DNA of 64,000 bases from a virus. A program made the position numbers and the translations under genes. The stretch spans positions 17,567 to 81,566 of the IMG/VR virus record IMGVR_UViG_3300035185_000025; one strand, given 5' to 3'. Each line of letters opens with the position of its first letter. Position 1 is the first letter of the stretch. Positions 4,612-51,682 of this stretch are shown here, one piece after another. The notes beneath the pieces were generated by a model, which was not told where the DNA came from, searched no databases, and was given only the letters and a program-made list of their open reading frames with translations.

Positions 4612-4618
4612 GGTCGAA

Positions 4619-4673: not shown

Positions 4674-4680
4674 GGTGGTC

Positions 4681-4971: not shown

Positions 4972-5382
4972 ATGTCGCTGGCCGACACGCTACGAGCAGA
5001 CGCAGCCGAGGTCCTCGACGCGATCACGTCCGCGCCGGACGGCTTGACGGTCCGCGAGATCACGTACTCGACCACGATCCGCCAAGGCCGCGCACGCGAA
5101 GCGCTGGCCTATCTGCTCGGCGCGTCGGCGGTCACGTGCGCGACGGAGCCAGGCCGTGGCGCCACCGTCAGCGGCACGAAGGGACCGGCGCAGGTCTGGC
5201 GCGTGGCTGAGCCGGGCTCGCTGCCGCCGTTCGACCACGTCTACGCCGCGATCGAGGACGTGCAGGAGACCCTCGGCGAGGTCTGGGCCAGCGCTCCGAG
5301 CGGGCTTCGAAACCGGATGGAGTGCTGCATGGCCTGGCTCGGGCGCGCGATCAAGCGCATCGACGGCGAGCCGGTCGACTAG
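4972..5382 (+). CDS. Winged-HTH-like hypothetical protein
   Basis: GLTVREITYST...AREALAYL pattern. Confidence 0.5.
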   Translation: MSLADTLRADAAEVLDAITSAPDGLTVREITYSTTIRQGRAREALAYLLGASAVTCATEPGRGATVSGTKGPAQVWRVAEPGSLPPFDHVYAAIEDVQETLGEVWASAPSGLRNRMECCMAWLGRAIKRIDGEPVD

Positions 5383-6533
5383 TTGATCGCCGGCACCCGC
5401 ACCAGAGTCCCGCGCGGCACCGTGTCGCTGTAGAAGCCGTTGTAGTTCGAGATCACCGTCCACTGCGTCGGATCCCCGTAGTTCTCCGAGGCCACGTCGC
5501 GCAGGCTCGTCAGCGTGTCAGCGAGGAACGTCGAGAGGATCTCGGTCCCCTCGAACAACTCGAGGAGCCGCTGCTGCTCTGCCGCGAACGCAGCGAGTTC
5601 CTGCAGCCGTTCGCGCAGCAACGACTCGATCAGCGCCGCGTTCGCCGTGGCCGAAGGCGATCCGACGAGCGAGGCGTCTCCTCGGGCTGATCGGATCTCG
5701 GAGATGTCCTGCAGCAGCCCCCGCGCGGCGAGACGGATCAGCGCGAGCTGTCCCTGGATCGTCGAGAGCAGATCCTGAGGCACCGACGCGATCGAGACGA
5801 TCCCGCGCAGCGCTTCGATGATCCCGACGATCAGCGCGCCGATCGTGGTGATCGCTGCGACGAGCCGGCGAACGAATGCGTTCGGCTGTCGCAGGCTCAG
5901 CAGCGCTTCGATCACGGCGAGGATCGTGGCCAGGATCGCAGCGAGGCCGGCCGCGACGCTGAGCGCGTTGAACTCGACGAAGCGGCGCACCGGGCTGAAC
6001 TCGGTGACGCCGCTCCACTCGAACTCGAGCTCGAACTCGACGTCGCTGATCCGCAAGAACCGCGGCGTGAAGCGCTTGATGATCCCGTAGCGGACGTATT
6101 GATCCCACGTCACGCGGACCTTCTGCTGGTCCGTGGTCATCAGCGTGAGCGCGTCGACGACCACGCGCGCAAGCTGGGCGGGCTGCGACGACGGGAACAC
6201 GGCGGTCGTGACGAAGGTGCCGCCGGCAGCGACGCCGGACTGCGGGATCCCGGCGCCGCTGACCTGCGGGAACCCGACCAGGTCGACGCCGTTGCTCGCC
6301 GTGTTGCTGAGCAGGAAGCGGTCCTTCCACATGCCGGTGAGCACGGTGTTGCTCAGCATCGAGCCGAGCACCTGCTGCGTCGCCACGGGGTTCGCGGGGA
6401 GCCAGGTCTGCTTGGTGCGGATCTCGACGCCGAGTTCGATCGGCTGGTAGGGCAGGCCGCGGCCCTTGAAGATCATCAGCCGGCGCGGGCCCGTGACCTG
6501 CTCGATCGTCAGCGGCGAGGCGTTGCTGGGCAT
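5379..6533 (-). CDS. Tail/baseplate-associated protein with C-terminal LysM-like motif (Mu N-like architecture)
   Basis: C-terminal SLRDVASENYGDPTQWTVISNYN...GTLVRVP; lies between tape measure and hub genes. Confidence 0.65.
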   Translation of the reverse strand: MPSNASPLTIEQVTGPRRLMIFKGRGLPYQPIELGVEIRTKQTWLPANPVATQQVLGSMLSNTVLTGMWKDRFLLSNTASNGVDLVGFPQVSGAGIPQSGVAAGGTFVTTAVFPSSQPAQLARVVVDALTLMTTDQQKVRVTWDQYVRYGIIKRFTPRFLRISDVEFELEFEWSGVTEFSPVRRFVEFNALSVAAGLAAILATILAVIEALLSLRQPNAFVRRLVAAITTIGALIVGIIEALRGIVSIASVPQDLLSTIQGQLALIRLAARGLLQDISEIRSARGDASLVGSPSATANAALIESLLRERLQELAAFAAEQQRLLELFEGTEILSTFLADTLTSLRDVASENYGDPTQWTVISNYNGFYSDTVPRGTLVRVPAIN

Positions 6534-6570
6534 GCGGGAAGTCTACGCGACGAGCGGCGGTATGGCGGGC
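6534..6570. promoter_or_regulatory. Overlapping class A (-) and class B (+) promoters
   Basis: TAGACT-N6-ATG 6533 on minus; GGGAAGT-N16-GGTAT-N7-ATG 6571 on plus. Confidence 0.7.
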
Positions 6571-6647
6571 ATGAGCCACAACAATACGCTCGCAGCGGCC
6601 TGCGGCCTGTTCGACCGTGACACGAACGCTGCTCTTGAGGTGGATGC

Positions 6648-9678: not shown

Positions 9679-10200
9679 GACCCATTGCCTTGAGGCGCGC
9701 AGCGATTCCCCCTCCTCCTCCGTCGGCATGATCATCTCGACGAACAGGCTCGTCACCATGGTCTGCGCCTTCGGGGTGAGCCTGTGCCACCAGGGGCTCA
9801 CGTCGCTGGTGCTGTCGGCGGGCATCAGCACGGGCTTGCCGTTGGCGTCGCGCGCGAGCTTCCCGGTCTGCTGATCGAGCACGCCGAGCGCGGCGATGAA
9901 GTTCTTGGCGCCGTCGGAGAAGTCGGTGCCGGCCTTGACGAGCTTGCGGACCTCGCCGCCGTTCGGCTCCCACATGCCGAAGGCCCGGTCTGCGTCGGAG
10001 CCGGTCCAGTTCATCGACTGCACGATCGACTCCGGGAGCTCGAGCGACCAGTAGCCGCGCGTGGGCTTCGGCGGCGCGTCGCGGATCATGCGACCGAGAT
10101 CGCCGGGGGCTCCGGTCTGGACTTGTTGCTGTTGCTGGGACGCGGGCGCGGACATGAAGCCGCCCTGGTCCCACATCTGCTTTGGCTGGTGGTCGGACAT
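9670..10200 (-). CDS. Tail assembly chaperone (G-like)
   Basis: Directly upstream of the tape measure gene; ends in G6-TGA; class A promoter TACCCT. Confidence 0.7.
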   Translation of the reverse strand: MSDHQPKQMWDQGGFMSAPASQQQQQVQTGAPGDLGRMIRDAPPKPTRGYWSLELPESIVQSMNWTGSDADRAFGMWEPNGGEVRKLVKAGTDFSDGAKNFIAALGVLDQQTGKLARDANGKPVLMPADSTSDVSPWWHRLTPKAQTMVTSLFVEMIMPTEEEGESLRASRQWVGG

Positions 10201-10245
10201 GGCGCGAGGGTAGCACCCGCACGGGTGCGCGAGTAGAGTGGAGCC

Positions 10246-10614
10246 GTGACCGTCCGAACCCGCATCGCCAGCGACCTCCGCGACTCCGGCGAGATCGAAT
10301 CCGAGGCCGCGATCCTCGTGACCACGGACAAGGTGATCGTCGCCGCCAGCGAGGCCGAGGCGTTCAAGCTGTGGATCGCGCTCACGGCCTACCTCGCGGA
10401 GAGCCTCAAGCCGTCGCGGCAGTGGCAGGCGCTCCACGTCGCGCTCGCGCATGGCCTGGCGGCCGAGAACGCCGACGCGCAAGCGCAGGCCCAGCCGGAC
10501 TACACCAGCGCCTCGACGGTGCTGGAGATGGTCAAGGAGATCGCGGGCGCCGACGTCTACGCGAAGGTGCGCCAGGGGATCGTTGACCGGATGCTCGGGC
10601 GGTCGGGAAGCTGA
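10246..10614 (+). CDS. Hypothetical protein
   Basis: 122-aa ORF. Confidence 0.65.
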   Translation: MTVRTRIASDLRDSGEIESEAAILVTTDKVIVAASEAEAFKLWIALTAYLAESLKPSRQWQALHVALAHGLAAENADAQAQAQPDYTSASTVLEMVKEIAGADVYAKVRQGIVDRMLGRSGS

Positions 10615-10632
10615 CCGGCGCGCAGTCGGTAG
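10605..10632 (+). promoter_or_regulatory. Class B promoter
   Basis: GGGAAGC-N16-GGTAG-N7-ATG 10640. Confidence 0.85.
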
Positions 10633-10639
10633 ACCGACC

Positions 10640-11140
10640 ATGTTCAACCTACCGATCGAGGACGGCGCATCAGCCGAACTGTGTGCAGAAGAAGGCCGCG
10701 GCCGCATCGTGGTCGAGTGCTCGCGCGCGAAAGATTCTCCGCGCTGGTCGCTGCGCTTCGAGGTCGACGAGCGCTACGAGGACGGCGACGGGTCCGAGCT
10801 CGTCGAGTGGATCCCGGGCATCCCGATCAGCATGTGGATCAGTGCGTGGGTGGATCTCTTGCTCCCACTGCGCGACCTCTCCAACGCGACCGTCGCGTCT
10901 CTTGTCAGGGCTGTCACCAGCGGCAGCAAGAAGATGCCCGTCCATAAGAAGGTGCGCGTCGCCAAGTCGCGGGGCTGGTGGGTTGACCTCGAATGCATCG
11001 GCGACCTTCAGAGCGGAGAGCCGATCGTCGTCATCGAGTTCAAGCGTCCGCTGGCGGCTGAGGAGATGGTCGCGTTCCTCGGGCAGATGGCGCTGGCGTT
11101 CGATGCTTGGCGATCTGAGGGATACGACTTCCTCGACTGA
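10640..11140 (+). CDS. Hypothetical protein
   Basis: MFNLPIEDG..., leaderless start. Confidence 0.65.
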   Translation: MFNLPIEDGASAELCAEEGRGRIVVECSRAKDSPRWSLRFEVDERYEDGDGSELVEWIPGIPISMWISAWVDLLLPLRDLSNATVASLVRAVTSGSKKMPVHKKVRVAKSRGWWVDLECIGDLQSGEPIVVIEFKRPLAAEEMVAFLGQMALAFDAWRSEGYDFLD

Positions 11141-11194
11141 GGATCACCGTCTTCGAGCCGGGAAGCTGACGCCGAGGAGGACAGTAGGCTCTGC

Positions 11195-11476
11195 ATGGCC
11201 GATCGACAGACCCAGAAGAACCTAGATCCGATGCGCGCAGGCGCATGTCTGCTCGCCACGGTCACGGCCATGCGCGAGCACGACGACGTCTCGTGTGCCG
11301 AGATGGACCGCCGCATGGGTCGGCCGTCTGGCACCTGGGCTCGGCGAGAGCGCAACGATGCCGGGCTCACGCTGTTCGACTTCTTCTCGGCCTGCGTCGC
11401 CCTGGATCTCCGCGCGTCGGCGGTCGTCGGGTTTGCCGAGAACGCGTTCTGCGATGACGAGCACGCCATCGGGTAG
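11195..11476 (+). CDS. XRE/Cro-like HTH protein
   Basis: VSCAEMDRRMGRPSGTWARRER; promoter GGGAAGC-N16-AGTAG at 11160-11187. Confidence 0.65.
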   Translation: MADRQTQKNLDPMRAGACLLATVTAMREHDDVSCAEMDRRMGRPSGTWARRERNDAGLTLFDFFSACVALDLRASAVVGFAENAFCDDEHAIG

Positions 11477-11791: not shown

Positions 11792-11832
11792 TCATCGGGA
11801 AGCGTCGCGCGTCGCCGGCGGTAGTGTCCTGC

Positions 11833-12126
11833 ATGGACCGACATGAGATCTACGAGAAGCTCGACGCATCATCTGTCGAGCGCGCTCGACTTCGCATGGA
11901 CTATCTTCTGGCCCTCGAGCGTGAGTGCGAGGCGATTCCATTCCCGTGGAAATGGTTGCGGTCTTCGCCTGCTCTCGTGTGCGCTGCGGTCATGGGAACC
12001 GAGGAACGGGAGACGATTACATTGTGCAGCAACGGTGATTTGGTCGTTCACACCAAGCACATCATTGAGGCCAATGTTCTTGGCGCGCTTCGTAGGCAGC
12101 TCGACATCGAACTGTCGAACACGTGA
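11833..12126 (+). CDS. Hypothetical protein
   Basis: Class B promoter at 11797-11824. Confidence 0.6.
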   Translation: MDRHEIYEKLDASSVERARLRMDYLLALERECEAIPFPWKWLRSSPALVCAAVMGTEERETITLCSNGDLVVHTKHIIEANVLGALRRQLDIELSNT

Positions 12127-12127
12127 T

Positions 12128-12418
12128 CTACTTGAGCTTGCGCGTGCGGATCGGAACGATCGCCGGCACCGTCGGCTGCGTCATCACCGGCAGCGATCCG
12201 GGCGCGACCTCGCTCGACGGGTAGCCCGAGAGCACGGCGCCGCGCGGGGGCGGGAAGTCGGTCCGCGTGTCGCCGATCGGCTCGACGAAGCTGCGCTGCG
12301 GCTGGACGCGACGGGCCTGCGGGATCTCGTCGGTCATGCGGGCAGTCGGCGCGCGTGGGAGCGCTTGCGGGAGCGGGATCGACGTGGATGGATCGTTGGG
12401 TTTGAACGGGCCGGCCAT
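12128..12418 (-). CDS. Pro-rich hypothetical late protein
   Basis: TACACT-N6-ATG. Confidence 0.55.
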   Translation of the reverse strand: MAGPFKPNDPSTSIPLPQALPRAPTARMTDEIPQARRVQPQRSFVEPIGDTRTDFPPPRGAVLSGYPSSEVAPGSLPVMTQPTVPAIVPIRTRKLK

Positions 12419-12495
12419 GCGTCGAGTGTAGCGCACGCAAAGCCAAGGGCGCGGCCGCGACCCTACCCGCCGCGACCGCGCCCCGGGGTCCACCG

Positions 12496-12939
12496 CTACA
12501 GGTTGAGGCTCTGCACGACCGAGCAGCTGCCCTCGAACGACATCGTCACGTACTCGGCGCGCGCGCTGTCGCTGGTCTCGATCGGTCCGAACTGGAAGTC
12601 GACCAGCGTGAACAGCCGCGACTGGCCGTTCGGCGCGGTCAGAACGTAGGCGATGTCGAATCGCGCGGCAGCTCCATCCCGCCGCTGCGCCTTGGCGACG
12701 ATCTCATCGCGCAGATCGAAGCTATCCACCCGTTCGATGTGGATCTCGAAGCTCGCGCTCGTGCCCTTGTAGATCGAGTCGTAGCGCGCCTCGGTCTCGC
12801 CGAGATACTCCTCCTCGAGAACCTCGAGCTCGTCGGTCATCGAGAACGACATGATCGCGTTGATCGCCTGGGTGGGCGCGCCGTTCCGCAGGAGACGGAT
12901 CTCGGTCTCCTGGCCTTTAATTCGAAGTGGTCCTGCCAT
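12496..12939 (-). CDS. Tail tube protein
   Basis: 147 aa, beta-rich, directly after the sheath gene, SD GGAG. Confidence 0.75.
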   Translation of the reverse strand: MAGPLRIKGQETEIRLLRNGAPTQAINAIMSFSMTDELEVLEEEYLGETEARYDSIYKGTSASFEIHIERVDSFDLRDEIVAKAQRRDGAAARFDIAYVLTAPNGQSRLFTLVDFQFGPIETSDSARAEYVTMSFEGSCSVVQSLNL

Positions 12940-12964
12940 GATCTCGGTCTCCTATCAGGGCCGC

Positions 12965-15508
12965 TCAGGCGGCTTCTTGGCTTACGACGACGGTGGGTCC
13001 AACGGTGGTCTCGAACACGATCGCCTCGGCGACGGCGTACATGCGGACCTCGACGACCAAGCGGAGGATGCTCGGCACGGCCGGGTCCGTGGTGTCGGTG
13101 ACGCTGAATGCTTCGAGCCGACTCGCGCTCGGGTTGCCGGGCGAGGCGAACAGTTCGAGCGTCCCCTCGACCTGGCTGATCAGATCCCGGCGAAGCTGCG
13201 GCGTGATGATCTTGTTGCCGAACGGCACCGCGATAATGAACAGCGTGTCGTTGATGAAGTCGGCGAAGGCTCGGCGGTTCGCGGCCGTGCGACCCGGGTT
13301 GGTCACGCGGTCGACCGAGGTCACGTCGTCGACCCAGCCGGCGCCGGCATTCCTGTCGACCTTCGGTGCCGAGATGCCCTCACGCTTGAAGCGCTGATAG
13401 TCCCCGACCTTCAGCTTGATCGAGCCCTCGCTCAACGGGTTGTAGGCGTCTTCGAGCCCGGCCACGTCGAGCTTGCCGAAGTTGGTGCCGCGCTGATCCT
13501 CGGCGGCCGACTGCTCGGGGTTGATGATCGACCGGATCGCCGCGAGCCAACTGTCGGAGTGGACGTTGACCACGCCGTCGTCAGCGAAGCCGATGCCGCC
13601 GACAACCCCGGTCTCGCGGATCTCGGGAACGGCGGTGAGGAAGCCGGGGAACGGCACCTGCACGCGCTCCTCGCGAAGCGCCACCGCCCAGGCGACCGCG
13701 TCGTCGCGGCTCACCCCGATCCGCGGGCTCGAGTAGCCGGTCCGGCCTGCGCTGCCCGACGCGGTCGCCGTTCGGCAGTTGGCCGCGATCTCGTCGCGGA
13801 TCACCGAGGAGCTGCGCGCCGAGAAGATCCGGTTGATCTCGTTGGCTGGAGGCGCGTCGACGACGGTCTCGCGCAGGGCGGTGACGTAGCGGTTGTCGAG
13901 CTGCGCCGCGGTCAGGCGCGTGATCGCGGCCGGGTTGCTGACCGCGAAGCCGCCGGGCAGGTCGGACAAGATCACGGTGACGTCGGTCGCCGAACTCGCC
14001 AGCGCGGTGTCGGTGTCGAGGTAGGGCCGGACCTTCGCGGTGAATGGCCCGCCGCCGGTCCCTGTCGAGACGTCGCTGAGCGTGATCCAGATCGTCGCGG
14101 TCGCGGTCGAGTCCTGCACCCGCGTGCCGGCCGGGATCGTGATGTCGGCCCCCTCGTCGGCGCTGACCACCGTGGTGGTGTCGAAGCCGAGAGCGGTGAG
14201 CCAGGTCCCGGAGCTGCCCTTGATCGAGCCGGTGACCGGCGTGAGCTCGTTGCACACGCGCAAGGTGCCGTCGCTGTTGATCGCCGCTCCGAGGTTGCCG
14301 ACGGCGTCGATGATGTCGACGGCCTCCTGCGTGCTGATCTGCTGGTCATCGCCGACGTTGCCGGTGCCGTAGACCTCGAGCGCGACGCCGGGGACAGTGT
14401 TGAGGATCGTCAACTCCGCGCCGCCTTGCAGGGCCGTGATCGCGGTGAGGATCTGGTTGTCCTCGCCCGTGATCGTGATCGTGTCGATCCCGGTGGCCGC
14501 GAAGCCGAAGCCTGGCACGCTCAGTTGCGCGAGTTGGGGCGGATCCGTGATCGCGTCGCTGAGCAGCTTGTCGCGCTTGAGCGTCACGCTGCCGACGGGC
14601 CCGAGGAACGGCGCGGTGTCGTAGTCCGTGGCCACGCCGTTGACGATCCGGCTGACCCGGACCTCGGTCGTGATCGCCGTGTCCGCGATGACTTGGATCG
14701 TCCACACGTCCTGCACGACGGCCGTGGGCAGGCCGAGGACCGCGAGCGCAGTGCCTCCGACGATCTGGAACCGTGCCCGCGCGCCGGACCGGACCGAGCG
14801 CAGATCCAACTGGCCGCCGTTGTCGGAGGCGATCGTGGTCGCGACCTTCGCGTTGATCCGGTCGATGACGTTGGCGAGCGTGGTGTCCGTGTCCGTGAAC
14901 GTGATCGTCTGCGCGTCGGTGGAGAGCATGTCGTCCCACGCGACGAGCAGCGTCAGGCCGTCGAGCGCTCCTGGGGCGAGCGGGTAGACGACGCCGGACG
15001 CGAGGATGTTGGCCTTGGCCGAGACGACCGTCGCCGTCGCGGTCGTGGGGCCGCCGTTCAGCTCGAAGACCGCCGTGTCGCCGTTGGCTGCCGCGTACGG
15101 GCCAGCGTCGCCGTTGAGGCATGCGAGCCGCGAGAACTCGACCGAGCCCGCGGAGTTGTCGACGCGCATGATCACGAGCCGCCCGAAGGGCTTGTTCACC
15201 AAGGCGATGAACCCGTTCCCGTTCCAGGGCTCGGAGCCGCCGGACTGCTGGGCGACGGGGCCCGCGTGGAGGTTGCCGCCTACCGACCAGCCGAGGCCGC
15301 CGAAAGTGCGCTCCCGATCCGTGGGACCGAAGACCTCGGTGGGCGTCAAGACCGGCCCGCGCTCGAACTCGCCGACGACGCAGACGGTGCCCGCGCCCGC
15401 GCCGAGCACGAGTGCAGGCGGTGCGCGATCGATGACCGCAGTCTGTGAGACCGAGAGAAGCTCGGCCTGGCCAGGATCTTGGAGATAGACTCGGCGGAAG
15501 GCGACCAC
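12965..15508 (-). CDS. Contractile tail sheath protein
   Basis: N-terminal VGEFERGPV motif; C-terminal NRRAFADFI...VEVRMYAVAEAIVF; 847 aa. Confidence 0.88.
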   Translation of the reverse strand: MVAFRRVYLQDPGQAELLSVSQTAVIDRAPPALVLGAGAGTVCVVGEFERGPVLTPTEVFGPTDRERTFGGLGWSVGGNLHAGPVAQQSGGSEPWNGNGFIALVNKPFGRLVIMRVDNSAGSVEFSRLACLNGDAGPYAAANGDTAVFELNGGPTTATATVVSAKANILASGVVYPLAPGALDGLTLLVAWDDMLSTDAQTITFTDTDTTLANVIDRINAKVATTIASDNGGQLDLRSVRSGARARFQIVGGTALAVLGLPTAVVQDVWTIQVIADTAITTEVRVSRIVNGVATDYDTAPFLGPVGSVTLKRDKLLSDAITDPPQLAQLSVPGFGFAATGIDTITITGEDNQILTAITALQGGAELTILNTVPGVALEVYGTGNVGDDQQISTQEAVDIIDAVGNLGAAINSDGTLRVCNELTPVTGSIKGSSGTWLTALGFDTTTVVSADEGADITIPAGTRVQDSTATATIWITLSDVSTGTGGGPFTAKVRPYLDTDTALASSATDVTVILSDLPGGFAVSNPAAITRLTAAQLDNRYVTALRETVVDAPPANEINRIFSARSSSVIRDEIAANCRTATASGSAGRTGYSSPRIGVSRDDAVAWAVALREERVQVPFPGFLTAVPEIRETGVVGGIGFADDGVVNVHSDSWLAAIRSIINPEQSAAEDQRGTNFGKLDVAGLEDAYNPLSEGSIKLKVGDYQRFKREGISAPKVDRNAGAGWVDDVTSVDRVTNPGRTAANRRAFADFINDTLFIIAVPFGNKIITPQLRRDLISQVEGTLELFASPGNPSASRLEAFSVTDTTDPAVPSILRLVVEVRMYAVAEAIVFETTVGPTVVVSQEAA

Positions 15509-15520
15509 GAGCAGAGGGTA

Positions 15521-15733
15521 TCAGCCTCGCTGGCCGCGCGCGAGATCAGGCGTCGGGATCGCCTGGACCTCGGCTCGCATCGCATCCACCTCTGCCACCA
15601 GCGCACAGAACATCCTGTGCATGTCTGGATTGAAGCCCCAGCCAATCCCAGAATTCTGCGCGGACGCGATGGTGCGCGCCTGGTCAAGTTCTGCGGGCGT
15701 CATCCGTACGGGAGGATTGATCAACTGGCTCAC
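15521..15733 (-). CDS. Hypothetical protein
   Basis: Class B promoter at 15741-15768, 7 nt before GTG. Confidence 0.6.
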   Translation of the reverse strand: MSQLINPPVRMTPAELDQARTIASAQNSGIGWGFNPDMHRMFCALVAEVDAMRAEVQAIPTPDLARGQRG

Positions 15734-15740
15734 GCCAGGT

Positions 15741-16616
15741 CTACCCGACCGGGTCCTGCCCGCTTCCCGCGACCGAGACGACCGACGAGATTCCGACCGT
15801 ATCCACGCGCCCTGGCGACCACACGAGCTCGACGTGCGGCACCTCGGCGAGCACCGAGACGTCGAGGACCCACTCGTTCCCGCGCGCGCCTTCTTCTGCG
15901 TCCGGCCTCGACGTGCTCTGGATCGTGTAGCGGATCACGCGCGAGAAGTATTCGGGCAGGATGATCCGCCGGCCGCACTTGTCGTCGTGCCGCTCGGCCG
16001 CGAGCAACTGCGCGACCCTGGCCTCGAGACCGCGGCGCTGATCCTTGTGCGCCGTCCAGAAGATCAGGCGCAGCGGGATGATCTGGTCGTGGCCGAGGTA
16101 GCGCAGGAGCGTCTCCGGGTAGAAGCGATCCGCGGTCTCTTCGAGGATCCGCGCGCCGCGGCCGGATGGCTCGAAGACGGCGTCCTCGACGCTCGTGATC
16201 AGGGCCGTCTGCGCCGGCATCGACTCCTGCTCGGATCGCGGCCAGTCCAAGAACACCCGCGTGAGCGGGTGGACGCTGACCCGGGCCTGCGGTGCGCCGT
16301 CCTTGGCGAGCGCTTCGAGGTCGACGCTGTGCCAGCGCAGGCCCTCGATCAGACGGTACAGCCCGAGCATGGCCGCGTCGCGGGGCGCGAGCGTCAGGAC
16401 CGGCGGCCCGTCGAAGGGGAACGACGCCGACCGGAGCTCGCTCGGGTACCTGCCGATCTGCGTGGCCGAGTTGAGCGTCGCGGTGCCGTCGAGGTTGCGC
16501 AGGATCTCGACCTCGTAGACGTTCTCAGGAAGCGCTCCGCCGGATGGTCGCGGTGGCTGGCCTGCGGTCGGGATGTCGGCGCACAGGCTGTCGGGATCGA
16601 ACTGGCGATCGTTCAT
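15741..16616 (-). CDS. Probable tail terminator/completion protein
   Basis: Between neck and sheath genes; class A start MNDRQF. Confidence 0.5.
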   Translation of the reverse strand: MNDRQFDPDSLCADIPTAGQPPRPSGGALPENVYEVEILRNLDGTATLNSATQIGRYPSELRSASFPFDGPPVLTLAPRDAAMLGLYRLIEGLRWHSVDLEALAKDGAPQARVSVHPLTRVFLDWPRSEQESMPAQTALITSVEDAVFEPSGRGARILEETADRFYPETLLRYLGHDQIIPLRLIFWTAHKDQRRGLEARVAQLLAAERHDDKCGRRIILPEYFSRVIRYTIQSTSRPDAEEGARGNEWVLDVSVLAEVPHVELVWSPGRVDTVGISSVVSVAGSGQDPVG

Positions 16617-16652
16617 GCGGGAAGCGTACACGCGGCCACGCGGTAGAGTCAG
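16617..16652. promoter_or_regulatory. Overlapping class A (-) and class B (+) promoters
   Basis: GGGAAGCGTA is the B -35 on plus and contains the TACGCT -10 on minus. Confidence 0.8.
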
Positions 16653-16907
16653 GTGATGGCCACGAACGAAGACGAGCGCACCGACGTTTTCGACCCCAAG
16701 ACCGGGATGTTCTACGACTCAGCGGACGGACCGCCTGACCCGGAGTCGGCTCAGGCCAAGGCGTCACGCAAGCGGCGCGCGCCAGTTCCCAAGCCGGCGA
16801 TCGCCCCCGTCGACAGCCGCAGCTACAAGTACCCGGACGTCGCCCGCGTCGGCCCCGTGCGCTCGGGCAGCCTGCGCGAGTTCGAGGACGAGGAGCCGAC
16901 GTCGTGA
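16653..16907 (+). CDS. Hypothetical protein
   Basis: 84-aa ORF. Confidence 0.6.
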   Translation: MMATNEDERTDVFDPKTGMFYDSADGPPDPESAQAKASRKRRAPVPKPAIAPVDSRSYKYPDVARVGPVRSGSLREFEDEEPTS

Positions 16908-17173
16908 GCGCATTGATCCGAGCGCGGGCGCGCTTGCCGATCCGTCGAGTTGATGATGCCTGCCGATGTGAGCCCGGAGACGATGTCTACATTGAGGCCG
17001 ACGCTCCGTGCGGGTTGAAGGTCTGGATGCGATCGCCCGGATGCGTCGGCGGAACGCCTGGCCATGGCTGGGGCTTCGCTAGCATGGTCCCGATCGATGC
17101 GATCGCGGCGTACGGTGATCTTCCCGAGCAGACTCCATTCGGGATCCTTCGACCGATGACGGTGCCGGCGTGA
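16904..17173 (+). CDS. Hypothetical protein
   Basis: GTGA overlap. Confidence 0.5.
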   Translation: MSALIRARARLPIRRVDDACRCEPGDDVYIEADAPCGLKVWMRSPGCVGGTPGHGWGFASMVPIDAIAAYGDLPEQTPFGILRPMTVPA

Positions 17174-17198
17174 GCGCCATGGTCTTGTTGTGCGAAGA

Positions 17199-17708
17199 TC
17201 ACCCCTTCGAGCGCCGCGCCGCCCGGTCGATCGAGCGCTGCATCTGCAGGCTGATCTCCAGCGGCAGGCGCTTCGCCACGAGCGGCATCGTCCGGCGCAG
17301 CACGTAGCGGCCCTTGGTGCCCTTGCGCCCGATCTTGCGCTGGATCGCTACCGCCACGCGCACCGCCTTCGAGCCCTTGGCGAGCCGCTTGATCCGCACC
17401 CACTCGATGATCGACTTGAGAGGCGGCCGCTTGCCCGGCCGGCGCCCGACCTCGACGAAGATCGAGTGGCGCGCCGTGTTCGTGAGGACCGCGCCGTCCG
17501 GCACCTTGATCACGGTGAAGCTGCGCTCGTAGGTCCCGGTGGCGCGCGGGCGGTATGGCTTCGACTTCGCCGAGACCTTCACGGCCTGCGTCGCGCCGTA
17601 GCGAGCGGTCTTGCGGAGGGCTCGGATCACGCCGGCGTCGAACTGCCTGGCCAGCGTTCGGACGGCCGGCCCGAGTTGCTTCGGGTTGCGCAGCTTGATC
17701 GTGGTCAC
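17199..17708 (-). CDS. HK97 gp10-like neck/tail completion protein
   Basis: Basic; TGTYERS, FVEVGRRPGK, IGRKGTKGR. Confidence 0.75.
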   Translation of the reverse strand: MTTIKLRNPKQLGPAVRTLARQFDAGVIRALRKTARYGATQAVKVSAKSKPYRPRATGTYERSFTVIKVPDGAVLTNTARHSIFVEVGRRPGKRPPLKSIIEWVRIKRLAKGSKAVRVAVAIQRKIGRKGTKGRYVLRRTMPLVAKRLPLEISLQMQRSIDRAARRSKG

Positions 17709-17746
17709 GCGGGAAGCGTAGCGCGGCTCCGGCGGTAGGGTCCGGC
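17709..17746. promoter_or_regulatory. Overlapping class A (-) and class B (+) promoters
   Basis: GCGGGAAGCGTA-GCGCGGCTCCGGC-GGTAG. Confidence 0.8.
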
Positions 17747-18064
17747 ATGACCAGCAAAGCGAAGTCCAAGAAGATTCTCGTCGCCCGTATCGTCACCGCG
17801 ATAATTTCGTTTCCCTACGCCGCATGGGTCGCATCGCTCATGTGGGGCTGGTTCGTCGTACCATTGGGCGTGAGTCAGATCGGCATGTGGCACGCCGGTG
17901 GCCTCGTGCTGTTCATGACGTGGCCTTCTGCGTCGGCCGCCGTCGCACTGGTCGATCTAGGCCGCAAAGAGGATGAGATCGACGACCTGGCAAAGTCACT
18001 TGGCGCCCTGTTCGTGCCGACGATCATGTTGGCGTTAGGGTACGCATATCGCCTGTTCATGTAG
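17747..18064 (+). CDS. Small membrane protein
   Basis: About 3 hydrophobic segments. Confidence 0.65.
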   Translation: MTSKAKSKKILVARIVTAIISFPYAAWVASLMWGWFVVPLGVSQIGMWHAGGLVLFMTWPSASAAVALVDLGRKEDEIDDLAKSLGALFVPTIMLALGYAYRLFM

Positions 18065-18065
18065 A

Positions 18066-18749
18066 TCAGGCCAGCAGTACCGCGTCCTCGAACACCTCGT
18101 CATCGACGACCACGGTCTGATCGACGAGATCCTCGCGCCGGTAGCCGGACTGCGTGGTCAGCCGCACGCGCCACTCGTTCGAGTCCAAGCGAAGCACCGG
18201 CGCACCGGCGAGTTCGAATCGATACGTCCGCGGCGTTCGATCTGCCGGACACATGCCGATCGCCTGCACCTCGTAGAAGAACTCGCGCGTCGCCGTGTCG
18301 TCGCCCCACGGCTCGCCGTTGCGGTAGCCGCGAAGCGTCCAGTCGTCGACCTGCAACGGGCTCACCTCGCGCAGGTTGACCACGCCGTCCGGCTTGCGAG
18401 CGGCCTGCTCGACGATGAGTTCGACCGCGTCCAGATCTCGAAGCTCGACCGGCATCAACTCGAGCGAGGCGTCCTCGGACCAGGTCCCGGAGATGTCGTC
18501 CTGCACCTGCCACACGAGCCGCACGCGGTACGGGCGTTGCCCGATCTTGTGGATGGCCAGGCGCGCGCGGTCGATCGCCTTCTGGCGGCGCAGCGCTGGC
18601 GTACACGCGAGCAGGTCGATCGCCGGCGGCGTGTTGCTCGGCGCGACGGGGAAGTCAGGCCCGCGACCGGGCGGGCAACTCGACGGGCTCGCCGTGGGGA
18701 CGCAAGAGCAGGGCTTGCGCGAGCATGATCCGCAGACGGCCATGGCCAC
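18066..18749 (-). CDS. Probable head closure protein
   Basis: Position in the neck cluster; Cys-rich N-terminus. Confidence 0.5.
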   Translation of the reverse strand: MAMAVCGSCSRKPCSCVPTASPSSCPPGRGPDFPVAPSNTPPAIDLLACTPALRRQKAIDRARLAIHKIGQRPYRVRLVWQVQDDISGTWSEDASLELMPVELRDLDAVELIVEQAARKPDGVVNLREVSPLQVDDWTLRGYRNGEPWGDDTATREFFYEVQAIGMCPADRTPRTYRFELAGAPVLRLDSNEWRVRLTTQSGYRREDLVDQTVVVDDEVFEDAVLLA

Positions 18750-18752
18750 ATG

Positions 18753-18950
18753 CTAGCCGGCTCGACGGACCCAGCGCTCGCCGTCCTTGCGGTAGGACTT
18801 CTTCACGGCGGCCCAGGCGATCTTCGCGGCCTTCGACTCGCTCCCGCCGTCGGACGCGACCGAGTTCCAGGTCTTGCGGTAGATCGTCTGGCCTCCGGCC
18901 GGGAGCTTGCGGACAGGCGGCGGAAGCTCGGCGTTGCGTCGGTACGGCAT
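18753..18950 (-). CDS. chaB: ChaB family protein
   Basis: MPY...ELPPPVRKLP...IYRKTWNS...AAKIAWAAVKKSY. Confidence 0.88.
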   Translation of the reverse strand: MPYRRNAELPPPVRKLPAGGQTIYRKTWNSVASDGGSESKAAKIAWAAVKKSYRKDGERWVRRAG

Positions 18951-19354
18951 CACCAGTCCCCTTCGACGACGCGGCCGCGCATGGCCTCTTGGTTCGACAC
19001 CGGATTGACGAAGGTCCCGAGTTGATCCGCAAGCCGTAGCTGGTACTTGCGGTAGCGCAGCTCCAGCAACTCGTTCGGCCGCTCGTACTCGAACTTTGTC
19101 GAGCCTGACGCGACCACGCCCGACGACATCGTGTCCATCAACTCGTCGAGCTGCTTCTCGGTGCAGTCCAGCCGATCGATCGTGGCGATGACGTCGGGCT
19201 CGGCGATCGGGTCCAGGTTCGCCGCGTTGCTGTCGAGCAGCAGCTTCGCCTGGGTCACGACCGCCGAGCCCAACGAGAGCGCGGTCGGTGTCGTCAGCTG
19301 GGTGTAGCTGAGGTGATACCGAGCGCGCTGGATCGTCCGCTGGGACAGGGCCAT
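18950..19354 (-). CDS. Probable head-tail adaptor
   Basis: RARYHLSY N-terminus, helical, 134 aa. Confidence 0.5.
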   Translation of the reverse strand: MALSQRTIQRARYHLSYTQLTTPTALSLGSAVVTQAKLLLDSNAANLDPIAEPDVIATIDRLDCTEKQLDELMDTMSSGVVASGSTKFEYERPNELLELRYRKYQLRLADQLGTFVNPVSNQEAMRGRVVEGDW

Positions 19355-19358
19355 GGGA

Positions 19359-19790
19359 TCACGCCGCCCGTGCGACCTGCAGCTTGCGGCCGCGGATCAT
19401 CGACAGCATGGTCGCGGTCGTCGAGAACCGCTGGCGGGGCTCGAACACCTCGCCGGGACCGAGCCCGGACGCCCGGTGATGGCTGAGGCTGACGAGCTTG
19501 GCGAGCGGCTGCTCCTCGAGCAGCTTGGCGACCTCCTCGACGCTGAGCGGGACCTGTGCCCGGGAGCGAAGCGCGGGAACGTCGACGCGCAGTTCCTCGA
19601 GCGCGGTCTCGATCCGGGTCATCTGCGCCGTGAGCTCGAGCATCGCGGCACGCGGATCCAGATCCGCGATCGCGGCCTGAGTCGCGGCGCCGGTAGCCCG
19701 GAGCTCGGTCAGAGAGGTCTCGATCTTGTCGAGCCGAGACTCGACGCTGGTGGGGCTGGACTCGCCCCGGCGATCTTTTTGGCCGGCCAT
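19359..19790 (-). CDS. Coiled-coil hypothetical late protein
   Basis: SD AAGGAGG. Confidence 0.6.
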   Translation of the reverse strand: MAGQKDRRGESSPTSVESRLDKIETSLTELRATGAATQAAIADLDPRAAMLELTAQMTRIETALEELRVDVPALRSRAQVPLSVEEVAKLLEEQPLAKLVSLSHHRASGLGPGEVFEPRQRFSTTATMLSMIRGRKLQVARAA

Positions 19791-19794
19791 CGGA

Positions 19795-20037
19795 TCAGCC
19801 CTCCTTGGGGTCCGAGTGGTACATGAGCGGCGTCATCGCGACCTTCTGGTCGCCGGCCGCCTTCGCGGTGAAGACCGCGCCGTTCTGGTACTCGGCGGAC
19901 TCGGGGCCCGCGGGAAAGCTGACGAGCCCGGGCGGGGTCAGTTGCCCGGCGCCGGTCTTCGACTTGGTGAAGGAGTTGGTGGTGCCGCTGCCCTCGATGC
20001 CCCGGGAGCCGTCGGTCATGTAGCTGGGCTTCTTCAT
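19795..20037 (-). CDS. Hypothetical late protein
   Basis: TACGCT-N6-ATG. Confidence 0.6.
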   Translation of the reverse strand: MKKPSYMTDGSRGIEGSGTTNSFTKSKTGAGQLTPPGLVSFPAGPESAEYQNGAVFTAKAAGDQKVAMTPLMYHSDPKEG

Positions 20038-42197: not shown

Positions 42198-43010
42198 TCA
42201 TGGCGTGGGCTCCGTATCGGGCTCCTGCGGCGGGACAAGCCGAGGGCCCCAGGCCAGCCCGTCGATGCTGTAGCCGTTCGTCATCAACTGGCCGTCGGGT
42301 CCACGATAGACCTCGGCGGGCGCCCAACTCCACGCGCGGTCGTCGAGGCCACGGATGCGGCGCCAGTAGAGCCCGGGAACTGTCGGGGTAGTCTCCACCT
42401 CCTCGCAGGGCCGCTTCGCTTCGGCTACGCGGGCGAGCAGGGCGTCACGCTCACGGGTGAGCCGATCGACGACGTCGCGCAGGCTGGTGAAAGCGGCGTG
42501 AGCGTCCGCCACCGCTGCGCCCATGTCGAACGGCGTGCCGTCGCCGTACTCCCACTCGGATGGGTCTGGCCGCCCGGACCACAGGGCCAGGCACCACAGC
42601 GCGATCTCGCCGGTCGCCGTGCGGCCGGGCGTCAGGCGACCGCGGACCCGGCTGGGCCGCTCGGCGAGGCGGGCCTCGGCGTCCTCGACGTAGCCCTCGA
42701 AGTTGGCTGCGGTCATCGCGTGGGCGCCCTCCTCGTCGGCGAGGGCTGCGGTGAGCCGCTTGACCTCGGCTCGCAGCCTGGTCACGACCTCGCCTCCGTG
42801 CTCGTAGACAAATGCGTTGGCGGACCAGTCCTCCTCGTCGACAGGCCCATTGTCGATGTTGACCACGACGCGTGCCCCGCAGCCCGGGCAGTAGTCCTCC
42901 TCGCCGTCTGAATAGCGATCGGCGTCGCGCCTGAAAACGCTCTCACCGCAGGCGTCGCACTCCAAGCCAAACGGTCCGGAGACATCGGGTTGAACTGGTG
43001 AATCGGCCAT
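42198..43010 (-). CDS. Zn-ribbon/coiled-coil hypothetical protein
   Basis: CDAC...CPGC; class B promoter at 43019-43046. Confidence 0.65.
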   Translation of the reverse strand: MADSPVQPDVSGPFGLECDACGESVFRRDADRYSDGEEDYCPGCGARVVVNIDNGPVDEEDWSANAFVYEHGGEVVTRLRAEVKRLTAALADEEGAHAMTAANFEGYVEDAEARLAERPSRVRGRLTPGRTATGEIALWCLALWSGRPDPSEWEYGDGTPFDMGAAVADAHAAFTSLRDVVDRLTRERDALLARVAEAKRPCEEVETTPTVPGLYWRRIRGLDDRAWSWAPAEVYRGPDGQLMTNGYSIDGLAWGPRLVPPQEPDTEPTP

Positions 43011-43018
43011 CGTCGGGC

Positions 43019-43048
43019 CTACTCGCGCCGCCGGTGTACGCTTCCCGC
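43019..43048. promoter_or_regulatory. Overlapping class B (-) and class A (+) promoters
   Basis: CTACT-N16-GCTTCCC, with TACGCT-N6-GTG 43049 on plus. Confidence 0.78.
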
Positions 43049-43213
43049 GTGCCATACCGCGACGACCGCCCGCGCTGCCCGACCTGCGCCGAGCCGGCCG
43101 AAGGCTACGACGCGATGTGGGACTACCACCGCTGCCCGAACGGTCATCGATGGGACGGGCCGGTCAACGGTGGCCCGCCCGTCAGCCGCTCACAGGACGG
43201 CAGCAGGCGGTGA
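43049..43213 (+). CDS. Small Zn-ribbon protein
   Basis: CPTC...CPNGH; GTGA overlap with MuF. Confidence 0.55.
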   Translation: MPYRDDRPRCPTCAEPAEGYDAMWDYHRCPNGHRWDGPVNGGPPVSRSQDGSRR

Positions 43214-45126
43214 GCACCGAACTCGCGGCCGAGCTCGCCGACATCCAGCGCGGCCGTTTTGACGGGCTCTGGGAGACGCTCAGCGTGCGGCAGCGCCGGA
43301 TCGTCGAGCGGAAGCTCGCTCAGCTGGAGAAGGACCTCGCCAAGACGCGCCGCGGATCCTGGTCGGCCGCGAACTCGGCCGCGACGATGATCCAACTCGC
43401 GCAGGCGGTGAAGGGCCTCAGCGCATCGCAACTCGCGTCACTCCGGCGTGCGCTCCCCGGCATCGCCGCTCGCGCGCAGGACTCCTCGGCGAAGTGGCTG
43501 CGGCTGCTGGACCAGAGCTTCACGGGCTCGACGGTGCCGCTGCGGTGGGACTCGCTCGAGTGGCTCGAGGACTACCGCGAGCCGCTGCTGCGCTCGCGCC
43601 TTCGGATCTACCGCAAGAGCTTCGCCCGCTACGGGTCCGAGGCCGTCAGCGCGATCGAGGATGCGCTCGCGCAGCGCGTGCTCGTCGGCACGCCGTGGAC
43701 CGACGCGCGCGACGAGGTGATGTCGATCGTTCGCGAGCATGTCAACGACAAGCAGTGGATGGTCGACCGGATCGTGAGGACGGAGACGGCGACGATCTAC
43801 AACGCGACGACGATGGCGGCGCTGCACGCCGAGGACGAGCCGGACGATCCGATGCTGAAGAAGCTGGTCGCGACATTCGACGCGGCGACCGGGCAGGACT
43901 CGCGGCTGCTGCATGGCCAGACGCGGAGGCTCAGCGAGCCGTTCGTCGACGTCACGACCGGCCGCGAGTACATGGCGCCGCCGAACCGGCCGAACGACCG
44001 CGAGATCGTCGTTGGGTGGCGAAAGTCGTGGGGCGATGATCGGGAGTTCGATCAGGAGACGGCCGAGCCGTTACCTGATCAAGACATCATGACGCAGGAC
44101 GACCTTGACAAAGCTGTCGCTGAGGCGGTCTCAACTGCCGCACCAAATGAACCGGAGAAGTCAGAGATCGAACGCCGGTGGGACGCACGGGTCATGACAG
44201 ATGACGAGCGACGTTATAATGATCTACTCGCTCGGCGTCCGGTCATGGATAAATACTCCAATGCAGAATACCGAGCGCTCGACAAATGGACCGAGACGAT
44301 TACGCCGTATCAGACTCGTGTTCAAGCCGAATACCGAGCTATTCGTGATGAAATCATCGCTGAGCATGCAACTCGAGCTGGTGAAAGCGGTATCTTCGAC
44401 ACCGACGCGGATGCGATCGATGCCATGGCAGAGAGAGGAATAAAATGGAATGCCGACAAGATGCCAGCAGGGTTTGCTCGTATGATCGAAAGCGAGCTTA
44501 GGATGCTTGAGTCGACGCCGTTTGCGCCTGAGGTGACGGAGATCGTTATCGATGATCTTCGTGGAGGCACTGCGTTGGCCCAGAAAGTTATCCGTAATCC
44601 TCCGTACCCTCAGGGAATCAGACTATCATTCGACCCGGACGGGATCCCGACTGCATCGGCTGCGCTACGCGACGACATGCGCGACATCGCTGACGGCAAG
44701 CAGCCATATCTTTCCGCTGCCAGGATCAGCACAAAACAACGTCATGATCTAGCACAACGGTACGGTCACCTGACAGATGATCCGGTAATCCTATCTCACC
44801 TGATACGGCACGAGTTTAGTCATGGAATCGACTTCAATCTTCGAGATCTTTCAAACCATCGAAATGACGGCTATGCGCTCATGCGCAAGGCGTGGATCCA
44901 ATGGGGCGAGTCTTCGTTCAAGTCTGGAGGGTTCTCTTCTGTAAGTCGCTACAGTTCGACGGATAAGTACGAGTTTTTTGCAGAGGCGGTCGCGCTTGCG
45001 CTGTCCGATGGCAACACAAACGCGCTCCCGCAAGGTCTGCGTTCTGCTGTCTCCGCGATCCTTGGATGGGAGGACATGCCAGACGTATACGTCAAGATGC
45101 TACGGGAACGCGGACCCGAGTTGTGA
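43210..45126 (+). CDS. MuF/gp7 minor head protein with C-terminal zincin metallopeptidase-like domain
   Basis: RIVRTET, LHGQ, PPNRPNDR; C-terminal HEFSH and SRYS...EFFAEA. Confidence 0.85.
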   Translation: MSTELAAELADIQRGRFDGLWETLSVRQRRIVERKLAQLEKDLAKTRRGSWSAANSAATMIQLAQAVKGLSASQLASLRRALPGIAARAQDSSAKWLRLLDQSFTGSTVPLRWDSLEWLEDYREPLLRSRLRIYRKSFARYGSEAVSAIEDALAQRVLVGTPWTDARDEVMSIVREHVNDKQWMVDRIVRTETATIYNATTMAALHAEDEPDDPMLKKLVATFDAATGQDSRLLHGQTRRLSEPFVDVTTGREYMAPPNRPNDREIVVGWRKSWGDDREFDQETAEPLPDQDIMTQDDLDKAVAEAVSTAAPNEPEKSEIERRWDARVMTDDERRYNDLLARRPVMDKYSNAEYRALDKWTETITPYQTRVQAEYRAIRDEIIAEHATRAGESGIFDTDADAIDAMAERGIKWNADKMPAGFARMIESELRMLESTPFAPEVTEIVIDDLRGGTALAQKVIRNPPYPQGIRLSFDPDGIPTASAALRDDMRDIADGKQPYLSAARISTKQRHDLAQRYGHLTDDPVILSHLIRHEFSHGIDFNLRDLSNHRNDGYALMRKAWIQWGESSFKSGGFSSVSRYSSTDKYEFFAEAVALALSDGNTNALPQGLRSAVSAILGWEDMPDVYVKMLRERGPEL

Positions 45127-46415: not shown

Positions 46416-46422
46416 TCCATGC

Positions 46423-50342: not shown

Positions 50343-51173
50343 TCAGAACAGAGCGAGCGTCCCGGTCTTGTCCGGACGTGTAGGCGCGCCGAGGTACTCC
50401 AGCGCTTCGAGATATGCGACCTCGTCGACCTCGGCTCCTACAGCGTTGCAGCCTTCGAGATCTGCAGCGCGCATCGTCGTGCCCAGACCGGCAAATGGAT
50501 CCGCGACCACCGGCCGCTCCGGCCAGTCAGGCAAGCGCTTCGATCCGTCGTCGCGCAGCTTCGGGATCGCGTAGTCGCGGACGATCTCCCGCATCACTCC
50601 AAGCGGCTTCCCGCCCATCCTCGGCGATCGAGGATCTCCATGCTTGCGCATGTAGTGCCCCGGGAGCGTCCCCCAGCGCTGCAGCTCGCTCGAGCGCGGA
50701 CGAGCGACCACGAGCCAAGCGTTGTCGATCCACTCCTCCGGCGCCGCGACCACCAACTGGTAGCTGTAGCAGCTCGGCCCGTCGCCACACAGGCGCGCCC
50801 TCGATCCAACGTCGATGATCGGGATCGGCGGGAAGGCCAAGCGCCCGACTCGGGTCAGTTCAACTGCCCAGATCGGCGCGAGGTTGTGGTCGGTGATCGA
50901 TGCGATCCAGCCACGCGTCCGCGGGTGCCAATGCTCCACGAACTCGCGGATGTCGGCCGGTGTCAGGAACCCGTAGTCGATCTCTGGCGAGTAGTTCGGC
51001 CGGTGCCTGTAGCGAGGGTCCTGCGGCTTCGCTCCCGTGCTCCTCAACTCCCGGCCGTCATTGCCATAGCGAGAGTGCGTGTCCTCCCCGAACGGTGCGT
51101 CGAAGATGCAGGCGTCGCACTCGATGTCGGAGGCCACGTCCTGCCACCTGCCGTGGCGGAGATCCGGCATCAC
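50343..51173 (-). CDS. Beta-class N4C/N6A DNA methyltransferase
   Basis: Motif IV DAPF, KPLGVM, motif I DPFAGLGTT. Confidence 0.75.
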   Translation of the reverse strand: MMPDLRHGRWQDVASDIECDACIFDAPFGEDTHSRYGNDGRELRSTGAKPQDPRYRHRPNYSPEIDYGFLTPADIREFVEHWHPRTRGWIASITDHNLAPIWAVELTRVGRLAFPPIPIIDVGSRARLCGDGPSCYSYQLVVAAPEEWIDNAWLVVARPRSSELQRWGTLPGHYMRKHGDPRSPRMGGKPLGVMREIVRDYAIPKLRDDGSKRLPDWPERPVVADPFAGLGTTMRAADLEGCNAVGAEVDEVAYLEALEYLGAPTRPDKTGTLALF

Positions 51174-51682
51174 GCCGCCACGAGCTCGCGGATGCGGATG
51201 CGCGAGCGCGAGGTCCTACCGTCGATCGTGTTCGCCGTCGTCCTCTGCACGGAAGCGATCTCCTGGTGTGTCTGCCCGCTGATCACCCGCCGTGTCGCGT
51301 CGGCCCAAAGCGGAGGCAGCTTGCGGATCGCCGCGTAGAGCTTCGCGCGCTGCTCCGCGAGTTCGCGCCGCTCGTCGATGTCGGCCTCGATCTCGACGAC
51401 GACCGCGCCCTGCCGATCCATGTCGACGGGGTCGACGGAGATCAGCCGGCGGTGGTGCGAGGACGCGCTCGAGCATGCTTGCCGGCGCATGATCGTGGTC
51501 AGCCACGCGTCGAGGTTCGCGCCTTCCTGGAACGTGTGCGCGTAGGTCAGCGCCCGCACGCAGGTGTCTTGGATCAGGTCCTCGGCGTCGGCGGCGGAGC
51601 GTGTGAAGTGGCGCGCGAGACCTCGCAGGTTTTCGAGGCTGGCGTAGACGTCGGTGGCGAAGGTGTTGGCTGGCTCGGACAT
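51170..51682 (-). CDS. ECF-type RNA polymerase sigma factor
   Basis: DAEDLIQDT, AWLTTIMR, AIRKLP, HQEIA...TIDGRTSRSR. Confidence 0.88.
   Translation of the reverse strand: MSEPANTFATDVYASLENLRGLARHFTRSAADAEDLIQDTCVRALTYAHTFQEGANLDAWLTTIMRRQACSSASSHHRRLISVDPVDMDRQGAVVVEIEADIDERRELAEQRAKLYAAIRKLPPLWADATRRVISGQTHQEIASVQRTTANTIDGRTSRSRIRIRELVAA

Follow-up and report, generated by a model that had tools for sequence, protein, structure and literature searches.

We analyzed a 64,000-nucleotide stretch of viral DNA (the window; bases 17567-81566 of the 81,566-bp IMG/VR record IMGVR_UViG_3300035185_000025), in which short divergent gene junctions of one design recur. The whole record, here called G000, has a completeness rating of 97% and a GC content of ~68%, and its DNA was contained in three public runs, all of wetland metagenome DNA. 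G000 is a wetland phage of high GC content that has not been cultured. Codon usage was used to map genes over the whole record, 125 in all, and the regions upstream of them were then read. Positions refer to the window unless they are given as genome positions.

The genes at 15741-18064 illustrate the arrangement. The minus-strand gene at 15741..16616 (291 aa; G+C content at third codon positions [GC3], 0.91) belongs to the tail module by position and had no family match. It starts back to back with a plus-strand accessory unit (16656..17173), which consists of an 83-aa open reading frame (ORF; 16656-16907) and an 89-aa ORF (16904-17173). The next gene, again on the minus strand (17199..17708), encodes a 169-aa HK97 gp10-like tail completion or Neck1 protein (phrog_5 at 2.6e-9; PF04883 at 8e-4, just under the curated cut-off), the N terminus of which is conserved in 23 aligned homologues. 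Its divergent plus-strand partner, an accessory cassette at 17747..18064, encodes a 105-aa membrane protein (phrog_2169 at 1e-5, a PHROG membrane protein filed under morons).

Anatomy of the divergent junctions

The two divergent starts lie at junctions that we call J2 (16614..16658) and J3 (17706..17749), with the virion gene on the left and the accessory gene on the right. At J2, the start codon of the left gene, read as CAT on the plus strand (16614-16616), is followed by GC and by GGGAAGC (16619-16625, plus strand), the -35 box of an element that we call class B. Overlapping this box on the minus strand is TACGCT (16623-16628), the -10 hexamer of an element called class A. The 13-nt rest of the class B spacer leads to GGTAG (16642-16646) and to the right-hand start at GTG 16653 or ATG 16656, so that J2 reads CAT GC GGGAAGCGTA, 13 nt, GGTAG, agtcag GTG ATG. 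J3 reads CAC GC GGGAAGCGTA, 13 nt, GGTAG, 8 nt, ATG, with CAC (a reversed GTG start) at 17706-17708, GGGAAGC at 17711-17717 (plus), TACGCT at 17715-17720 (minus), GGTAG at 17734-17738, and ATG at 17747-17749.

Two further junctions lie in the window. J1 (6531..6573) reads CAT GC GGGAAGTCTA, 13 nt, GGTAT, 7 nt, ATG; it comprises CAT (6531-6533), GGGAAGT (6536-6542, plus), TAGACT (6540-6545, minus), GGTAT (6559-6563), and ATG (6571-6573), and it deviates by GGGAAGT and GGTAT. J4 (43008..43051) is inverted, with GTG at 43049-43051 and TACGCT at 43037-43042 on the plus strand and GGGAAGC (43040-43046), AGTAG (43019-43023), and ATG (43008-43010) on the minus strand. On the other strand it reads CAC GC GGGAAGCGTA, 13 nt, AGTAG, 8 nt, ATG and deviates by AGTAG. 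A fifth junction, J5, lies 0.5 kb before the window (genome 17011-17054) and reads CAT GC GGGAAGCTTA, N13, GGTAG, N7, ATG.

A sequence-only reading of the window had placed J1 to J4, and all four were found at those positions. The spacings it gave, 6 nt for class A and 16 nt for class B, hold at all five G000 junctions: TAnnCT is 6 nt from the virion-gene start codon, and GGGAAG[CT] is separated by 16 nt from [GA]GTA[GT]. This second box is 6 to 8 nt from the opposite start codon, and the distance from start codon to start codon is 37 to 39 bp, again at 5/5 junctions.

The junction pattern is far beyond chance. CAY-GC-GGGAAGY-NTA-N13-RGTAK, that is, CAYGCGGGAAGYNTA-N13-RGTAK, occurs four times in the window and not once in any of 100 dinucleotide-preserving shuffles, and TANNCTTCCCGCRTG with at most one mismatch also occurs four times, compared with a shuffle mean of 0.06. 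The exact 10-mer GGGAAGCGTA occurs three times in the window, at 16619 (plus), 17711 (plus), and 43037-43046 (minus). When one mismatch was allowed, the 10-mer gave six matches versus 2.26 expected, which is not significant because 6/100 shuffles reach six.

The two opposed core elements have six bases in common: the hexamer is the reverse complement of -35 positions 5 to 7 and of the three bases that follow. AGC or AGT, which ends the -35 box, is read on the other strand as the end of the hexamer (GCT or ACT), including the T at -7. Therefore, only a T and an A are needed to complete the hexamer. In G000, TA follows the -35 box at 5 of the 27 class B sites, and these are exactly the five at which a real gene abuts 2 nt away (5/5 junctions versus 0/22 other class B sites; Fisher test, 1.2e-5). 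When the sites were pooled with those of a relative, G001, and of two metagenome fragments, L029 and L030 (see below), TA was present at 12/12 junctions and at 0/44 other class B sites (Fisher test, 4e-11). This result, together with gene starts at leaderless distance on both sides, bears out the earlier proposal that one sequence is coded for use on both strands. Furthermore, a T at -35 position 7, which produces the more AT-rich TAnACT, was seen at 4/10 dual sites versus 2/44 others (p = 0.008), as expected of two overlapping constraints. The five abutting junction genes of G000 have GC3 values of 0.87-0.96. Another five ORFs that seemed to abut had GC3 ≤0.72 and were discarded as non-coding frames.

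The 12-mer GCGGGAAGCGTA is present in three copies in the whole 81,566-bp record (reversed control, 0). Three identical 12-mers in one genome might point to an operator for a phage DNA-binding protein instead of two promoter elements. We regard this as very improbable: the class B -35 consensus, with its 44 other copies, plus TA accounts for every conserved base, the 12-mer has no dyad symmetry, and the variants TAGACT, TAAGCT, and TACACT retain the TAnnnT positions only.

Two predicted promoter classes and a phage sigma factor

Class A, defined as TAnnnT 5 to 8 nt ahead of a start codon, was found at 29 of the 125 G000 genes, at exactly 6 nt in 24 of them; the arrangement occurs at 0.5% of random positions. 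The form present at 5/5 junctions is TA(C/G/A)(G/A)CT, 6 nt before ATG or GTG. Only the four class A genes with TAGGAT score a Shine-Dalgarno sequence, as do 22 of 48 internal genes, and none of the five junction left genes has GGAG, GAGG, or AGGA at -17 to -5. No sigma-70 consensus promoter was found in 15500-18900. Class A precedes virion genes, the TerL gene, the portal gene, the scaffold gene, and a sigma factor gene. We predict that it is a real promoter class.

In Mycobacterium smegmatis and Mycobacterium tuberculosis, as described in PMC6448022, TANNNT precedes the transcription start by 6-13 nt, and an ATG or GTG is enough for leaderless translation. Class A appears to fit this pattern. 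Like the actinobacterial TANNNT promoters of that description, it lies at a fixed short distance from ATG or GTG and has no Shine-Dalgarno sequence. There, the ATG or GTG is the transcript start; at class A, the start codon is the predicted transcript start.

Class B consists of CGGGAAGC-N16-GGTAG with an ATG downstream, in most cases at a distance of 7 nt. Its two boxes keep a constant distance, the -35 having a GGAA(C)-like core and the -10 being short and containing GT, and they resemble the published promoter consensus sequences of extracytoplasmic function (ECF) sigma factors. We counted 27 class B sites in G000, where the spacer was preset to 16 nt in the search pattern, and 26 in G001. 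Among exact class B matches in G001, searched with N15-17, the spacer was N16 in 20/20, and the reversed control gave 0. Class B precedes replication and recombination genes (helicases, DnaB, RecE/RecT, resolvase) and many small genes.

G000 encodes an ECF-type sigma factor of 170 aa (51170..51682, minus strand), the gene of which has its own upstream TAGGAT, 7 nt, ATG, of class A type. Sigma70_r2 scored 56 bits (cut-off, 24), r4_2 was weak, phrog_1740 matched at 1.6e-19, and the nearest entries in the Atlas were ECF clusters. An orthologue is present in G001 (G001:57671-58144). Most likely, class B is the regulon of this phage sigma factor, its candidate reader. An own sigma-like protein and a repeated promoter motif before a class of genes are also features of phiEco32 (gp36) and Salmonella phage 7-11 (PMC8948821). 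These, however, are coliphage-type podoviruses with leadered transcripts, and the available text of that source does not mention embedding in a second promoter class.

Could class B be the only promoter at the junctions, with TAnnCT unused and translation of the virion genes relying on longer read-through transcripts? Read-through is possible, because no terminator-like site turned up in a simple scan of 15500-18900, and -10-only promoters are weak predictions in DNA of 68% GC. However, TA is confined to the sites with an abutting gene, 24 gene starts have a class A hexamer at 6 nt, and the five left genes lack a Shine-Dalgarno sequence at working distance, which internal genes often have. Moreover, read-through would have to traverse the cassette antisense. 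We consider this explanation improbable.

The sequence-only reading had also called the pair a switch between middle and late genes. These labels were not supported, because the sigma gene and the terminase gene, and likewise the scaffold gene, also carry class A. Against such a switch, one orthologous junction (49 bp) has no overlap.

Other arrangements of the same elements were seen. Back-to-back class B pairs share a palindromic -35, GCTTCCC(G/C)GGGAAGC, with N16-GGTAG-N7-ATG on both sides (window 46352-46425 and 4611-4675; genome 2126-2140). A GC-rich hairpin, GCGCACCCGC..GGGTGCGC, recurs between or just upstream of promoter elements (window ~10200-10246, 34760-34795, 37370-37400, and 46395-46415) and could be an operator or a terminator. 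A third fixed arrangement is the extended -10-like GTGGTAGCCTG, 5-6 nt before the GTG or ATG of large genes, including the portal gene (genome 8985-9004, 10428-10447, and 13433-13452, before the window; window 38960-38980 and 47945-47965). Three of these copies are adjacent to a divergent class B -35, with the two start codons 54-55 bp apart. CAC-GC before the class B sites at genome 8998, 10441, and 13446 was rejected as a start codon, since it belongs to the TGGTAGCCT extended -10 of this 54-55 bp module.

Conservation of the layout and predicted competition for shared bases

G001 (IMGVR_UViG_3300017971_000026; 84,078 bp, with terminal repeats) was found by a DNA-pattern scan, and its TerL is 65% identical to that of G000. 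In the scan of IMG/VR with the class B pattern, this record alone gave several matches; eight other contigs gave one each, which was taken as chance. A megablast search with window 12000-20000 found no match among 50,697 phage records. In tblastn searches of the phage records, G000 TerL found remote matches only (≤29% identity) and the sigma factor found matches of ≤32% identity; therefore, this route led to no cultured relative and no host. No tRNA was detected in the window and no WhiB gene was found. The sole host hint is a 40%-identical match on a 3.8-kb contig of an Actinomycetes metagenome-assembled genome. As a single-protein query in IMG/VR, the J2 left protein found no relative. The J3 left protein found 35 homologues, the closest being P0002 (90% identity, 82-kb contig) and P0007 (75% identity, 83.5-kb contig), and an alignment of 23 homologues was used to obtain 51 metagenome and 22 viral loci.

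G001 has five junctions in the same register, with TACACT, TACGCT, TAGACT, TACGCT at 7 nt, and TACACT. The left genes of J1 to J4 are orthologous in G000 and G001 (49-66% amino acid identity). The junction spacers have diverged between the two, with the positions of T, A, C, T, GGGAAG, and GGTAG kept. J3 is also kept in L029 (83% identity) and L030 (79%). The layout is thus conserved in G001, L029, and L030, the check that the sequence-only reading had proposed. J3 left homologues of ≤65% identity with a co-directional upstream gene (L032-L037, L039, and L044) have neither motif.

A more distant lineage, L034-L041 (49-53% identity), has CGGAATC-N16-GGTCG-N7-ATG as its leaderless promoter, a two-box type that differs from class B. 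In L038, the J3 orthologue has CAC-AG-CGGAATCGTA, which on the other strand is TACGAT tccgct GTG. L041 has CATGAT tccgac ATG and retains the A at -11 and the T at -7. Of the 11 other distinct sites with the CGGAATC motif, none has nTA. The layout in L038 and L041 shows that the geometry survives a change of the -35 letters. A scan with the pattern of this second lineage gave seven single matches on contigs of 37-64% GC, taken as chance. Palindromic -35 pairs (GATTCCGCGGAATC) are also present in this lineage.

These observations suggest the following mechanism. Each junction would be a back-to-back pair of leaderless promoters, ~39 bp start to start, with six bases in common. On the virion strand, TA(n)(G/A)CT would act as a -10-only hexamer of primary-sigma type; located 6 nt before ATG or GTG, it would make the start codon the first codon of the message. 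The opposite strand would carry an ECF-type promoter, CGGGAAG(C/T)-N16-GGTAG-N7/8-ATG, which is most likely read by the phage sigma factor and would drive an exchangeable accessory cassette. With the class A start codon taken as +1, the class B -35 would lie at -3 to -9 and the class B start at about -39. With textbook sizes of the open-complex bubble and the polymerase footprint, the class B -35 would fall inside the stretch melted by its partner, so that a module would accept one polymerase at a time. Mutual exclusion would follow from this geometry; the assignment of sigma factors to elements and the starts at start codons are predictions as well. Simultaneous occupancy by two holoenzymes appears implausible, and a switch function appears plausible. 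A double promoter with exclusive occupancy is the best explanation, and we think it probably correct. By its sequence, the module is a real, conserved, double-coded unit at accessory slots and a variant of overlapping divergent promoters.

Several points weigh against this reading. The sigma factors of G000 and G001 are only 38% identical, although both genomes use GGGAAGC-N16-GGTAG, and reading of class A by the host primary sigma factor is an assumption made from the TAnnnT/leaderless pattern. The four junctions shared by G000 and G001 are not independent, because the two phages share ancestry. Moreover, 8 of the 18 A/B junctions in both phages use wider registers of 49-77 bp: the start-to-start distances are 37-39 bp (five junctions), 54-55 bp (three), and 77 bp (one) in G000, and 38-39 bp (five), 49, 52, 69, and 69 bp in G001. 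In the G001 orthologue of J5, TAGACT lies beside the -35 box, without overlap, at 49 bp. The G000 orthologue of the left gene at G001-24084 has TAGCAT, 6 nt, ATG, with neither cassette nor -35 box, so class A is independent of the module. The two elements are therefore separable and each can be kept alone, which in turn supports the presence of two promoters. Shared bases are the commonest arrangement, not an obligatory one. Finally, E. coli bidirectional promoters compete only if one side is strongly activated: at five of them, basal activity was too low for competition, which appeared on strong one-sided activation (as described in PMC12825309).

The wider registers and the register switch at J5 could also mean that the overlap is a by-product of packing, in which both promoters work, the shared bases have no regulatory use, and timing comes from sigma availability alone. 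The 37-39 bp register is the tightest that keeps the -35 box outside the left coding sequence, and the negligible basal competition in the available E. coli account (PMC12825309) fits as well. However, 10 of the 18 junctions concentrate at one register, and this register was kept at four orthologous junctions over ~35-50% protein divergence and again after the change in -35 specificity. We give packing a lower but appreciable probability.

The back-to-back geometry could have the opposite effect. According to the twin-domain model, divergent transcription would supercoil the 39-bp core negatively and help the -10-only partner to open, leading to co-activation, not exclusion. The GC-rich discriminators and the -10-only promoters are, like the geometry, features expected to be supercoiling-sensitive. 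Because the -35 duplex would lie within the melted region of the partner, joint occupancy is not expected, and such positive coupling seems quite unlikely.

Exclusive occupancy would have partial precedents. The E. coli bidirectional promoters in PMC12825309 are likewise overlapping divergent promoters with competition between RNA polymerases. There, two -10 boxes of one sigma-70 holoenzyme overlap by symmetry, while in G000 an ECF-type -35 would overlie the -10 of a -10-only promoter and competition is predicted from geometry alone. Unlike the E. coli case as that source presents it, both sides in G000 would be leaderless, and the module occurs five times per genome at cassette boundaries. 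At Salmonella sdh, a DNA-bound alternative holoenzyme represses the other holoenzyme (sigma-S versus sigma-70) without a classical repressor, according to PMC4330354. The sdh promoters described there face the same direction on a chromosome, whereas those of G000 are divergent, belong to a phage, and would compete as judged by geometry.

If both promoters fire, two sigma classes are written into the same six bases, and neither intergenic space nor a repressor would be needed between a virion gene and the inverted accessory gene that faces it. At ~45 bp, the module is directly testable as synthetic DNA, so that sigma competition at shared DNA could readily be measured. For bidirectional expression in high-GC bacteria, the module is a compact candidate part as well.

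Accessory slots beside the junctions

The left gene of J1 (5379..6533, minus strand, 384 aa; 49% identical to its G001 orthologue) lies directly downstream of a weak tape-measure match (7250-9442). The G001 orthologue of the J2 left gene is 52% identical. Neither of these two left proteins has a PDB sequence relative. The left unit of J4 (43049..45126, plus strand) comprises a 54-aa zinc-ribbon-like ORF (43049-43213) and a 638-aa Mu F-like head protein (43210-45126; phrog_859 at 3.7e-8; PF04233 at 6.7e-5, below cut-off). The right gene of J4 (42198..43010, minus strand) encodes 270 aa with no assigned function and has no homology with the G001 gene in that slot.

The right-hand genes turn over. 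BLASTP revealed no similarity between G000 and G001 for the right-hand genes of J1, J3, and J4, and only a 25-residue patch for J2; the right genes at the J3 slot of G000, G001, L029, and L030 also show no similarity to each other. Contigs from a second wetland sample, aligned with the window, revealed strain joints at the modules. The joint 6559->7250 skips the cassette on the right of J1; its break coincides with the first base of the -10 box of class B. The joint 16898->17197 skips the second, 89-aa ORF of the J2 unit, which is replaced by 7 nt in another strain. The joint 17749->18066 skips the J3 right gene, absent or replaced in another strain, and breaks directly after its ATG. Since the left genes are orthologous and the right genes turn over, the modules mark slots for exchangeable accessory genes. 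The earlier idea that accessory genes insert head-to-head with virion genes fits these data.

Morons are small accessory genes that have their own promoter, lie between virion genes, and are present or absent among relatives. The G000 cassettes resemble the morons of tailed phages in being small, variable between relatives, and equipped with a predicted promoter of their own (class B). Unlike morons, the cassettes run opposite to the virion genes and have a promoter that interlocks with the one of the neighbour, and no terminator was found (simple scan of 15500-18900). The arrangement offers a picture of how a moron could insert inverted into a virion operon. The downstream virion gene would not be silenced, because each virion gene would have its own -10-only promoter at a cost of two bases.

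G000 also encodes a RecE-like exonuclease and a RecT-like annealing protein (window 29978-31668). The two make up a system for recombination at short homologies, which could use the conserved promoter modules to exchange cassettes. A further-reaching proposal is that the module is both a selected, portable toggle between two sigma factors and a docking site. The holoenzymes would repress each other, because the ECF -35 lies within the melted region of the virion-gene promoter, and would time cassettes versus virion genes without a DNA-binding regulator. The same module would serve as homology for RecE/RecT swaps and would have been kept through the change from GGGAAGC to CGGAATC. We offer this tentatively and consider it conceivable but doubtful.

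The stop codons of converging accessory and virion genes are 1-25 nt apart (window 17173-17199 and 18064-18066), where no terminator-like site was seen, and convergent transcripts may collide or overlap. Further strain joints drop single small plus-strand genes of the tail module (window 10603-11159, 11140-11457, and 11824-12122).

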